A stretch of 64,000 bases of DNA from Bacillota bacterium (lineage in GTDB: Bacteria > Bacillota_I > Bacilli_A > RF39 > UBA660), in the NCBI GenBank assembly GCA_015059435.1, contig SVAJ01000001.1:479132-543131 (forward strand). The letters run 5' to 3'. Below, one piece after another: positions 18,775 to 21,863 of the stretch. A program made the translations under genes and the position numbers. How positions within the stretch are numbered: the first letter of the stretch is position 1; each line of letters opens with the position of its first letter. Under the pieces are notes generated by a model. The model searched no databases. It was given only the letters and a program-made list of their open reading frames with translations, and was not told the DNA's origin.

Positions 18775-18903
18775 ATACTAATACACCTCACCTTCTACCA
18801 ATGCTTACTTTGGTAGATTAATCTTATCAAAAATATATGTCTAATTTTATAATTTCCGTAATATGTATTATGATTGGTATTTTTTGGTAAAATTATTTCT
18901 TTT

Positions 18904-18920
18904 TTCGACAAATTTCGACA
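18904..18920. promoter_or_regulatory. two tandem Spo0A-box-like heptamers TTCGACA (18904..18910 and 18914..18920) upstream of agrB
   Basis: They match the 0A-box consensus TGTCGAA on the opposite strand, about 90 to 100 nt upstream of the agrB ATG. Confidence 0.35.
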
Positions 18921-19007
18921 TTCAATCATAGATAAATTCATTTTATAGAAATTCCATTTTTTCCTTGTTTTTCAATGCTATATTGTTTTCGAAAACAAGG
19001 TGATTGT

Positions 19008-19601
19008 ATGAAAAAGAGGTTTATAAATAGTTGTATCTCTTTAATAACAAAATATGGCAATTACTCAAAACGGGATATACAAAAATTAGAATATGGTTTA
19101 GAAGGTATTTATCTTACTTTTACTAAAATGGTAGTTATATTTGCATTAGCTTTTATACTAGGAATATTTAAAGAAGTAATTATAGTTTTAATACTTTTTA
19201 ATGCTATTAGATATACCGGATTCGGATTTCATGCAGAAAAAAGTTATCAATGCTTAATTATTTCTATAGTAAACTTTATTCTTATACCTTGGATATTTTT
19301 AAATATTAAATTATCAAATATTATGAGCCTTTCTATAGCAATATTTTGTATTATCAACTACTTGATATTTGCACCAGCTGATACTATAAAAAGACCATTA
19401 CCAAATAGGAAAAAGAGAATTATTAGAAAAGTAATAACTGTTCTTATAGGAATTATATATACTTTCTTAATAATAATTCTTAATAATAAGTATTATACTT
19501 CATTAGTTATATCGAGCATGATAATATTAATGATTGTTATTAATCCATTAACTTACATGATATTTAAACAACCTTATAATAACTATAAAAAACTATCATA
19601 G
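19008..19601 (+). CDS. agrB: AgrB-family membrane peptidase, processing enzyme for the cyclic peptide autoinducer
   Basis: 197 aa from the second ATG, which has the RBS AAGGTGA. Multi-TM, with catalytic-spacing His and Cys in GFGFHAEKSYQC. The table ORF begins 33 nt earlier at a weaker start. Confidence 0.7.
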   Translation: MKKRFINSCISLITKYGNYSKRDIQKLEYGLEGIYLTFTKMVVIFALAFILGIFKEVIIVLILFNAIRYTGFGFHAEKSYQCLIISIVNFILIPWIFLNIKLSNIMSLSIAIFCIINYLIFAPADTIKRPLPNRKKRIIRKVITVLIGIIYTFLIIILNNKYYTSLVISSMIILMIVINPLTYMIFKQPYNNYKKLS

Positions 19602-19649
19602 GCATAAATACTTTTGTATTTAGCAAATATATGTAAAGGAGGTAAATGT

Positions 19650-19769
19650 ATGAAAAGATTCGCTGGATTACTTGCTGCTGTTGCTATGCTTGCTACTGGT
19701 GCTGCTTCTATGGGATGTATCTGGTATTTTATTGATGAACCAGAAGCAAACGGATTATTTAGAGACTAA
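19650..19769 (+). CDS. agrD: AgrD-like autoinducing peptide precursor, 39 aa, not in the ORF track
   Basis: RBS AAAGGAGGT is 6 nt upstream of the ATG. Product: MKRFAGLLAAVAMLATGAASMGCIWYFIDEPEANGLFRD. It has an amphipathic leader, a Cys-containing core CIWYF and an acidic tail IDEPEA, which is the AgrD architecture. Confidence 0.65.
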   Translation: MKRFAGLLAAVAMLATGAASMGCIWYFIDEPEANGLFRD

Positions 19770-19797
19770 AAAAACTAGGTATTATCCTAGTTTTTTT
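19768..19797. terminator. bidirectional terminator AAAAAAACTAGG-tattat-CCTAGTTTTTTT between agrD and the convergent kinase gene
   Basis: Perfect palindrome with an A-run and a T-run. It overlaps the last codons of the kinase ORF. Confidence 0.6.
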
Positions 19798-21077
19798 ATA
19801 CTTAATTTTTGAATATAATATGCATCTATCACTTCCTGTGATGCCTCTATCCAACTGTTTTTTGAAAGGAGTTTTTTTGCAAAATGTAGTCCATTTCCTC
19901 TGTCCTGGCCTTTTGTTGATACTCCTTTTTCATTTCTATTGTCAAATTTTTTATCTTTTTTGAAAGTATTTGATATAACTATATTTGCCTTATCTTTTAA
20001 GTCATATACTTCTACTAAAACATTTCTCTTTCTTGTTTCAGACGCTCCCTCTATTGCATTATCAAAATAGATTCCTACTAATTTACATAGTATATTCATC
20101 TGTTTCTCAGATAATTTATTGATGTTTGACTTTTTACTTATACTAACATCAAAAGTTAGTAACACCTGATTTTTTTGAGCTATTATAGTTTTGTAGTACA
20201 TAAGGCCCTTAAGTCCTCCCTTAGGAAGATCTTTTAGTTCTTGTATAACTTCTCCTTCTAAGTTTATATTATCCTCTAATATTTCATCAATTTTGCCTTT
20301 CACTTTTTTATCATTCGTTAAGCATCTAAGGACAGCTAATTGATTCTTATATTCATGTCTATTAAGTTGTTCTTTTTCAATCCATTCTTCAAAATTTTGG
20401 ATGTAACTAAATAGATTATCATATTCGTGACTTAATTTATTATAATTATTACTATTAATTAAAAAAATAACTGTTATAACAATTAGAAATATAGTTATCG
20501 AAACATTAGTTATATATTGCATATTCCAATTATAGTTTGCTGCTAGATTATATGCTAAATAACTTGTTTCTATTGTAAATAAAACTACAAATACTGTACT
20601 CAGTACTGATTTATTATTTATAATTCCATAATAGAAGTTTGATAACTGTTTTTTGATATAATTTCTGTTAATGATAAAGATTACGAATGCTGCAATTAAA
20701 ATATTTGCTAATAGATATAATAAATTATTTTCTTTTATCTCTATAGCACTAACAAAATTAACTAAAACTAATGATAAGATTAGTTCTGATAAAAATGTAA
20801 AGAACATTAGTATTCCTGTTGATATTACTGACTGTTCAAATCTTAATCTAAAAATTCCCTTATACCCAATAGCGTTAATGATAAATACTATAACTGTATA
20901 CATGGTAGTATAATGCGTTGTATTTATTATTACAGTAACTAATGACATGATGATTACTATTAAACTTGTTTTTGCACTTAAGACAGTTTTTTCTATGTTC
21001 AGCACTTTTTTTATAAAATATAGTCCTGTATATGTCATAATAATAGAGCATAAAAATTTAACAAATACCTCTAACAA
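19782..21077 (-). CDS. AgrC-like sensor histidine kinase (polytopic sensor plus GHKL ATPase)
   Basis: 431 aa. About 6 N-terminal TM helices and a C-terminal HATPase G-box GQDRGNGL. Confidence 0.7.
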   Translation of the reverse strand: MLEVFVKFLCSIIMTYTGLYFIKKVLNIEKTVLSAKTSLIVIIMSLVTVIINTTHYTTMYTVIVFIINAIGYKGIFRLRFEQSVISTGILMFFTFLSELILSLVLVNFVSAIEIKENNLLYLLANILIAAFVIFIINRNYIKKQLSNFYYGIINNKSVLSTVFVVLFTIETSYLAYNLAANYNWNMQYITNVSITIFLIVITVIFLINSNNYNKLSHEYDNLFSYIQNFEEWIEKEQLNRHEYKNQLAVLRCLTNDKKVKGKIDEILEDNINLEGEVIQELKDLPKGGLKGLMYYKTIIAQKNQVLLTFDVSISKKSNINKLSEKQMNILCKLVGIYFDNAIEGASETRKRNVLVEVYDLKDKANIVISNTFKKDKKFDNRNEKGVSTKGQDRGNGLHFAKKLLSKNSWIEASQEVIDAYYIQKLSIKKLG

Positions 21078-21801
21078 GATTAAACAACTCCTTCTTTTTA
21101 TTTCTTGATATTAATTCTGATTCTTCTTTATTCTTAAATCGTATAGTATTAGTTTTTCTATTATAGCTTTCTACCTGATTAATATTAACCGCTAGACTTC
21201 TATGACATTTGAAGAATCTATTATCTAATTTCTTTAATACTTGATTTAGACTTCCCTGTATGTAGAATTTTCCATGAGTTGTTTTGATTATACATATTTT
21301 ACTATCTTGTTCTTTCTCTATGGAAATAATTGTTTTAAACTCTATATTATATGCTGTTTTCTTATATACATATTTTAAACTTTTATATTTATTATCATAA
21401 TTTTTCATACATATCTGGAAAGCATCTTTTAGTTTCTTATCTGAGTTATCGACCTTGTTTATAAAGTCTACTAACATTAATCTTTTTCCTAGGGCTTCAT
21501 ATTTATACTCTGGAAAAGATGTAATTATTATAATCATCGATGACCAATCATCACATTCTTCTCTGATTAATCTTGCAGCATCTAAACCAGTTCCTGTATC
21601 TGTCACTATATCTAATAAATATATTTTAAATCCTAGATCTTTCTTTACTAGTTCTGTAAATTTCTTATCATACTTATCAAATGTATAACAATTATAATCA
21701 ATGTCATAGTTCATCATGAACTTTTCTATTTCTTTTTCATATTTCTTTAATAGTACTTCTTCATCCTCACATACTATAAAACTTATCACACTATCACCCA
21801 T
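21058..21801 (-). CDS. LytTR-family response regulator (AgrA-like)
   Basis: 247 aa. Receiver domain (phospho-acceptor LLDI) and a C-terminal LytTR domain (FFKCHRSLAVNINQV). Overlaps the kinase gene by 20 nt. Confidence 0.75.
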   Translation of the reverse strand: MGDSVISFIVCEDEEVLLKKYEKEIEKFMMNYDIDYNCYTFDKYDKKFTELVKKDLGFKIYLLDIVTDTGTGLDAARLIREECDDWSSMIIIITSFPEYKYEALGKRLMLVDFINKVDNSDKKLKDAFQICMKNYDNKYKSLKYVYKKTAYNIEFKTIISIEKEQDSKICIIKTTHGKFYIQGSLNQVLKKLDNRFFKCHRSLAVNINQVESYNRKTNTIRFKNKEESELISRNKKKELFNLVRGIC

Positions 21802-21863
21802 CCTACACCGATTATAATTTTACCATATTTTTCCAGTTTATCAAACAAAAAATAAAAGAACAA

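Follow-up and report, generated by a model that had tools for sequence, protein, structure and literature searches.

A probable agr-type quorum-sensing locus of two convergent transcription units with a diversifying AgrD family in uncultured gut Bacilli

The DNA analyzed here is a 64-kb stretch of contig SVAJ01000001.1 (positions 479,132 to 543,131; hereafter the window) from a metagenome-assembled genome (MAG) labelled 'Firmicutes/Bacillota bacterium', a member of the uncultured gut Bacilli. According to the open reading frame (ORF) list and the sequence, four ORFs lie in the order agrB(+) agrD(+) >< kinase(-) regulator(-). The plus-strand genes are agrB (19008..19601), which encodes a protein of the Pfam family AgrB, and agrD (19650..19769), a small gene of 39 codons preceded by a ribosome-binding site (RBS). 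They are faced on the minus strand by a gene for an AgrC-like kinase of 431 amino acids (19782..21077), with a polytopic N-terminus and a GHKL HATPase_c_5 domain, and by a gene for an AgrA-like regulator (21058..21801) with a LytTR domain and a weak receiver match. An earlier interpretation of the letters alone, referred to as the sequence-only reading, had described a complete agr-like locus, and an AgrB with the catalytic His and Cys, an AgrD, an AgrC-like kinase, and an AgrA-like LytTR regulator are indeed all present. The locus is a real and complete agr locus, and from its sequence it very probably specifies quorum sensing by an autoinducing peptide (AIP) of the clostridial kind, organized in two convergent transcription units.

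A peptide scan using one genome per species found agrD in 44 genomes, all of which are MAGs of uncultured Bacilli, 'Tenericutes', or Candidatus Onthousia obtained from chicken, rabbit, human (Hadza and Nepal), and other gut samples. The order agrB agrD >< kinase regulator was the same in 44 of the 44 species-level genomes wherever the contig extends, and the convergent layout noted earlier was thus kept in every related genome with a contig long enough to show it. The flanks of the locus were also conserved: secA-hpf-csp lies to one side, and a gene of glycosyltransferase family 4 (GT4), mreB, and an M23 peptidase gene lie to the other. The base composition at the locus showed no anomaly and no sign of a horizontally acquired island. 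Because both the synteny and the core-gene neighbourhood are conserved across the relatives, the data argue that the agr locus is ancestral to the clade and vertically inherited rather than an island.

The two transcription units meet at a bidirectional intrinsic terminator (19767..19798), which consists of a 13-bp stem between an A-run and a T-run and overlaps both stop codons. A scan of the region returned two terminator-like sites, compared with 0.3 expected by chance, and the fold energy of the hairpin was -14.2 kcal/mol. A hairpin was present between agrD and the kinase gene in nearly all related loci, with its structure kept and its sequence not. The terminator that agrD and the kinase gene had been proposed to share is real and conserved in the relatives.

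AgrB matched PF04647 with an expectation value (E) of 9.7e-31 and 107 bits (cut-off 23), covering profile positions 4-179 of 185. Its residues R68, G73, H75, and C82 were invariant in 44 AgrB orthologues, and their spacing (+5/+2/+7; R-x4-G-x-H-x6-C) is that of R70/G75/H77/C84 in Staphylococcus aureus, which are required for proteolysis. An AgrB without the catalytic His and Cys had been named beforehand as a finding that would speak against an agr system; the H75/C82 pair is in place throughout. These residues suggest that AgrB is a putative membrane cysteine peptidase/cyclase, which would remove the AgrD tail and form the thiolactone. The start at 19008 (197 amino acids) was favoured over the GenBank start at 18975 (208 amino acids) by the N-termini of the orthologues and by the RBS AAGGTGA. 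Approximately 960 relatives of AgrB were identified at E<=1e-5; the best 120, with 57-81% identity, were all metagenomic, and a few of these 120 were named 'accessory gene regulator B family protein [Bacilli bacterium]'. No sequence relative of AgrB was found among solved structures.

The product of agrD, 39 amino acids in length, is MKRFAGLLAAVAMLATGAASMGCIWYFIDEPEANGLFRD. Its RBS, AAAGGAGGT (19635..19643, plus strand), was read from the sequence, and an RBS of the GGAGG type precedes the agrD start in most related loci. agrB and agrD are separated by 48 nt here and by 26-58 nt in the relatives, wherever the upstream sequence was covered. In the GenBank record, the agrB, kinase, and regulator products are numbered consecutively (MBE6157647, 648, and 649) and agrD lies unannotated between them, so that the gene is missing from this annotation as claimed; the peptide is present in the JGI, Logan, and ENA gene calls. 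One observation counts against the assignment: in the comparison with TIGR04223, the peptide gave E=0.0084 and 16.3 bits, which is under the NCBI cut-off of 19 bits. The same model was matched by 30 of the 37 AgrD relatives, with a best E of 1.9e-6. These 37 peptides of 39-40 amino acids were obtained in a homologue search with a 51-residue upstream-extended agrD ORF as the query, and the pooled set comprised 78 distinct homologues carrying 74 different ring sequences.

Codon-level comparison of the homologues separated two parts of the gene. In the leader, codon-pair differences were 5344 synonymous and 1919 non-synonymous, whereas in the five positions after the Cys they were 240 synonymous and 3253 non-synonymous. 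Even invariant leader residues varied in their synonymous codons; the Ser at position -3, for example, is encoded by AGT, AGC, TCT, and TCA. Because synonymous changes dominate the leader and non-synonymous changes dominate the ring, this pattern indicates that agrD is translated into a precursor whose leader is conserved and whose core diversifies, under selection at the protein level. Failure of the small ORF to be translated had been listed as a possible objection, and the codon-level purifying selection favours translation. The identification of the unannotated ORF as AgrD is borne out far beyond chance by the 78 homologues, the synteny in 44 genomes, and the codon selection taken together.

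Some members of the family depart from the common form. In four more distant relatives (P0201, P0202, P0207, and P0203) the ring Cys is replaced by Thr or Ser, the sequences being ..STGT-VFWLL-DEP, ..VVGT-PWILT-DEP, ..AIGT-AWWYF-DEP, and ..GVGS-SFMII-EEP. Ser lactones are known among AIPs; we know of no AIP with a Thr-derived lactone. In P0211 the whole ring is missing (..GAAS-EPSSVNVLND), and P0187 and P0190 read on for 87-99 amino acids after CIWLVID/CIWLLVD, without the E-P tail. Judged from their sequences, P0211, P0187, and P0190 may be defective agrD alleles, either natural signal-null variants or assembly errors.

The size of the ring was examined by calculating the per-position entropy relative to the Cys in the 78 distinct peptides. 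The ring Cys was invariant. Position C+1 was variable (3.16 bits), C+2 was W in 69 of the 78 peptides (0.69 bits), and C+3, C+4, and C+5 were variable (2.34, 2.70, and 3.18 bits, respectively), C+5 being the highest of all columns. Beyond these, C+6 was D or E (1.16 bits), C+7 was E (0.10 bits), and C+8 was P (0.10 bits). The motif [DE]-E-P at C+6 to C+8 was thus near-invariant, with D/E-E at C+6 and C+7 in 77-78 of the 78 peptides, and the C-x5-[DE]EP register was also kept by more distant relatives found in the profile search. An invariant Cys, a variable ring, and a conserved [DE]-E-P after it correspond to the AgrD architecture, and the acidic C-terminal recognition tail described in the sequence-only reading agrees with this motif. 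The register does not point to the classical five-residue macrocycle; it indicates six residues from the Cys to the cleavage motif inclusive. This leaves the membership in the AgrD family intact, since six-membered rings are already accepted in it.

The ring had first been read as CIWYF. We consider that the core is probably CIWYFI, because the D/E-E-P motif begins six residues after the Cys, as in CVLVTL|YEP of Clostridium acetobutylicum. On this assignment, the predicted core spans C23-I28 (19716..19733, plus strand), with the leader M1-G22 before it, and D29-D39 (DEPEANGLFRD) after it is the predicted tail recognized by AgrB. In S. aureus, the cut by AgrB falls at M32|D33, directly before the D-E at C+5 and C+6 (the ring Cys is C28), and both D33 and E34 are essential for cleavage. 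In C. acetobutylicum, the AgrD sequence is ..GKCVLVTL|YEPKMPEEL and the signal is listed as the six-membered [CVLVTL]; R6T0, a synthetic C. acetobutylicum peptide with a six-membered ring and no tail, has been used in complementation and reporter assays. Ruminiclostridium cellulolyticum makes the hexapeptide CWFWSY.

The ring size here rests on the register and on analogy, and the alternative to be weighed is a five-residue ring followed by a variable spacer. In that case, the same agr system would make the thiolactone CIWYF by a cut at F27|I28, leaving I28 as the spacer. Five residues is by far the commonest ring size among characterized AIPs, and C+4 is mostly hydrophobic (L, V, F, or M), as expected for a ring-closing residue. 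However, the S. aureus cut immediately precedes the essential D33-E34, and the equivalent pair lies one residue farther from the Cys here; C+5 varies as strongly as the positions within the ring, as would suit a residue that determines specificity and not one in a conserved recognition tail; and the identical spacing in C. acetobutylicum goes with a six-membered signal. We therefore regard the five-residue ring as unlikely and use the six-residue core below. As a separate observation, 12 of the 44 genome loci (L016, L020, L022, L023, L029, L030, L032, L033, L037, L039, L040, and L042) have a second Cys at C+4 of the ring, e.g., CVWWCL and CAWFCV, which might allow the thiolactone to close in another register or a disulfide to form.

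The kinase has approximately 6-7 hydrophobic segments in residues 1-212 (the sensor), followed by an HPK10-type module. Its best solved relative was S. aureus AgrC (6e52, E=8.5e-8), in which RHDYVN is aligned with rHeYkN of the kinase, and H241 (H-box), N340 (N-box), and G394xG396 (G-box) were invariant in 35-44 orthologues. Against the staphylococcal AgrC equivalog model it scored 51.6 bits (cut-off 500), as expected for a distant member. The kinase gene was assigned a TTG start at 21077, giving 431 amino acids instead of the 418 in GenBank; at this position the relatives carry ATG or GTG, and the 20 nt by which the regulator and kinase genes overlap, conserved in the relatives, also support this start. 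The regulator scored 60.9 bits for LytTR and 19.3 bits for the weak receiver match. Its residues D13, D64, and K116 were invariant in 35-44 orthologues, and its best solved relative was the LytTR domain of S. aureus AgrA (3bs1).

The relationship between the peptide and the kinase was investigated by comparing closely related genomes. Four pairs of genomes with 96-100% nucleotide identity in their flanks were aligned; in each, identity fell to 41-57% across the kinase gene, most strongly in its sensor half, and the 3' end of agrD. Within the regulator gene it returned to 87-100% in three of these pairs, and in agrB it was 74-99%. Among 35 loci, ring similarity was correlated with sensor similarity when regulator similarity was controlled for (partial Mantel r=0.31, p=0.0005); the corresponding Mantel tests of ring similarity against the kinase domain, AgrB, and the regulator in these loci were not significant. 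Because the ring and the sensor form one hypervariable block and co-vary, the sequences argue that the adjacent kinase is probably the cognate receptor of the peptide. Pairing of the kinase and regulator with a different signal was another outcome that had been named as contrary to an agr system, and the co-variation of the sensor with the ring speaks for the pairing.

We also considered that agrBD makes a peptide and the convergent genes encode an unrelated LytTR two-component system that merely lies next to it. The two units are separate transcripts, and orphan agrBD genes occur in clostridia, e.g., in Clostridium perfringens, where the peptide is reportedly sensed by the distant VirS. Such an arrangement is very improbable here: the adjacency is conserved in all 44 species, the hypervariable block comprises exactly the 3' end of agrD and the kinase gene while the flanks and mostly the regulator gene are near-identical, sensor similarity is predicted by ring similarity after control for phylogeny, and AgrC is the kinase's best solved relative.

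The leader of AgrD consists of a basic n-region (KR) and a hydrophobic stretch, LLAAVAMLATGAAS, followed by M-G-C. In the 78 peptides, 12 of the 16 residues up to the Cys were invariant or nearly so, which makes the leader the most conserved part of the locus. It had been called amphipathic; in fact it is a hydrophobic segment resembling a Sec or lipoprotein signal. Two small-residue cleavage sites are possible, AAS|MG and SMG|C. The end of the leader, A-S-x-G-C, is lipobox-like, and several relatives weakly matched lipoprotein families. It is hardly credible that the product of the small ORF is a tiny secreted peptide or lipoprotein, with its Cys as the +1 residue of a lipobox processed by Lgt and LspA without AgrB and with the kinase and regulator sensing something else, since the KR n-region, the hydrophobic core, and A-S-x-G-C up to the Cys, together with weak matches of a few family members to LP_plasma and Mollicu_LP, are outweighed by its position directly 3' of agrB (26-58 nt) in every locus with upstream sequence, the matches of 30 of the 37 relatives to the AgrD model, the conserved D/E-E-P tail as the AgrB recognition motif, the co-variation of the ring with the adjacent kinase sensor, and the Ser at -3 with a bulky residue at -2, which is the reverse of the canonical lipobox. 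The usual lipobox consensus is [LVI][ASTVI][GAS]C.

Here, we propose a model for the agr system of this locus. AgrD would insert in the membrane via its hydrophobic leader, and AgrB, through H75/C82, would cut I28|D29 directly before the invariant D-E-P. The carbonyl of I28 would then be transferred to the thiol of C23, giving the six-residue macrocycle CIWYFI, and a second protease would take off the leader. A cut at G22|C23 would give a tail-less ring, which would undergo an S-to-N acyl shift to a homodetic cyclic hexapeptide, while a cut at S20|M21 would give MG-[CIWYFI]. The calculated [M+H]+ values are 826.3956 for cyclo-CIWYFI and 1014.4576 for MG-CIWYFI, compared with 713.3116 for CIWYF and 901.3735 for MG-CIWYF. 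Tail-less thiolactones with an N-terminal Cys are known to rearrange to homodetic lactams; the thiolactone is thus uncertain as the final form of the signal, contrary to the earlier prediction, as a tail-less AIP with an N-terminal Cys would rearrange to the lactam. The AgrC-like kinase would detect the exported peptide with its polytopic sensor domain and phosphorylate the LytTR regulator (H241 to D64), and the regulator would presumably activate agrBD and further targets. The ring and the kinase sensor co-diversify between close species, yielding pherotypes as in staphylococci.

A more specific proposal for the second step is that a lipoprotein signal peptidase, or another dedicated peptidase recognizing the conserved motif, removes the leader by a G|C cut on the S-acylated intermediate, with the lactam as the product. 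We rate this as improbable. If true, lipobox-type leader removal would be a new route of AIP maturation across a whole clade of uncultured gut Bacilli, in which nearly every species would have its own pherotype.

The locus was compared with known agr systems. Like agrBD/agrCA of C. acetobutylicum, it has four components in two transcription units, and the shared Cys-x5-x-E-P register (CVLVTL|YEP and CIWYFI|DEP) predicts a six-membered, possibly tail-less ring. Unlike the short, signal-peptide-like leader of the 39-residue AgrD here, the leader of the 54-residue C. acetobutylicum AgrD is long and charged/amphipathic; the units here are also convergent, with the regulator gene before the kinase gene. 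No homologue of the LanM-like CA_C0082 of C. acetobutylicum was seen at this locus, whose flanking genes are GT4 and csp. The aromatic-rich hexapeptide core starting at the Cys resembles R. cellulolyticum Rc-AIP1 (CWFWSY) and tail-less clostridial AIPs, and a leader cut at G|C would, as with Rc-AIP1, let the thiolactone isomerize to a homodetic cyclopeptide; beyond the motif, the sequences are unrelated. C. perfringens AgrBD ([CLWFT]) and Clostridioides difficile AgrD1 ([CPWII]) share the C-x-W ring start, but their rings are five-membered and their loci lack an adjacent agrCA, whereas the locus here is complete. The C. perfringens AgrD has a hydrophobic, signal-like leader.

S. aureus agrBDCA shares with this locus the catalytic spacing of AgrB, the D-E after the ring, and the AgrC and AgrA proteins that are the best solved relatives, and in both systems a hypervariable block comprising AgrD and the AgrC sensor generates pherotypes. 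The differences are that the four S. aureus genes form one agrBDCA operon, with RNAIII divergent from it, whereas the units here are convergent with agrA preceding agrC; that the S. aureus leader is amphipathic and its ring five-membered with an exocyclic tail; and that AgrB here lies outside the hypervariable block (87% identity between close pairs). We identified no counterpart of RNAIII; a cold-shock gene is the divergent neighbour here.

The evidence requires no new mechanism, because six-membered rings, split operons, and pherotype hypervariability are already known. For clostridial agr systems, reviews have already noted operons split into agrBD and agrCA, rings of six members, and peptides that lack a tail, and large genome-mining studies of AgrB/AgrD exist. 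The convergent, regulator-first layout (agrBD >< agrAC) had no published description in the searchable texts, and the leader/peptide family was not found by sequence in those texts, a scope that excludes the supplements of two large AIP-mining papers. Our analysis adds a large, apparently undescribed AgrD family of 78 distinct peptides, drawn from MAGs of an uncultured Bacilli lineage in the guts of animals and humans. The fixed chromosomal site, together with a pherotype cassette of ring plus receptor, makes these organisms natural models for how signals diversify and for possible cross-talk between gut commensals, and the predicted peptides are short enough for synthesis. A 'Cys plus four' ring prediction would give the wrong mass for this AgrD family, and the agrD gene missed in the GenBank annotation is a practical lesson.

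Candidate promoters were identified for both units. The top-scoring promoter-like site of the region (21817..21844, minus strand) has the sigma-70-like form TTGATA-16-TAAAAT with a TG extension, and we infer from its sequence that it is the promoter of the agrA-agrC operon; a TGGAAAAnTATGGTAAAAT block upstream of the regulator gene is conserved in related loci. For agrBD, a putative extended -10, TGCTATATT (18976..18984, plus strand), was read from the sequence, with no good -35. The form TGCTATATT / TGCTATAGT is found also in L001 and L008, and TGCTATATT is a candidate for the -10 of the agrBD promoter.

The intergenic region between csp and agrB contains the direct repeat TTCGACA-AAT-TTCGACA (18904..18920, plus strand), the sole exact copy in the 64-kb window. 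In 11 related genomes, TTCGACA-N3-TTCGACA occurs once per locus, approximately 90-105 nt upstream of agrB, and the repeat is a candidate operator for the autoinduction of agrBD. Two findings weigh against this role. First, conservation of the repeat does not extend to the more distant half of the clade; at its position, the Onthousia-like half (L043, L033, L044, L021, L022, L023, and L030) has ATGTCGAAATTACAGTTAAT, of which the part ACAGTTAAT resembles the staphylococcal AgrA box, ACAGTTAAG. Second, the period of the candidate operator is 10 bp, compared with the usual period of approximately 21 bp in LytTR sites. The candidate lies in the same intergenic region as the divergent csp gene, and a conserved AATTTCCGTAAT block upstream of the repeat was assigned, from its sequence, to the divergent csp promoter and not to agr. 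Close to that gene, a hairpin with an 8-bp stem, TCTACCAATGCTTACTTTGGTAGA (18794..18817), precedes the start of the cold-shock gene (18774, minus strand) by approximately 20 nt; several related loci show a similar element, and the hairpin is possibly part of the csp 5' untranslated region.

Within the 64-kb window, we found no second agr locus, no other LytTR or AgrB gene, and no tRNA genes. The long ORFs of the window are nearly all on the minus strand, with agrB-agrD among the few plus-strand units; because of this bias, agrB-agrD is transcribed against the local gene orientation. The sole Rfam match at the gathering threshold in the window was the L31-Firmicutes ribosomal protein leader RF03156 (25766..25795, minus strand, 37.2 bits).

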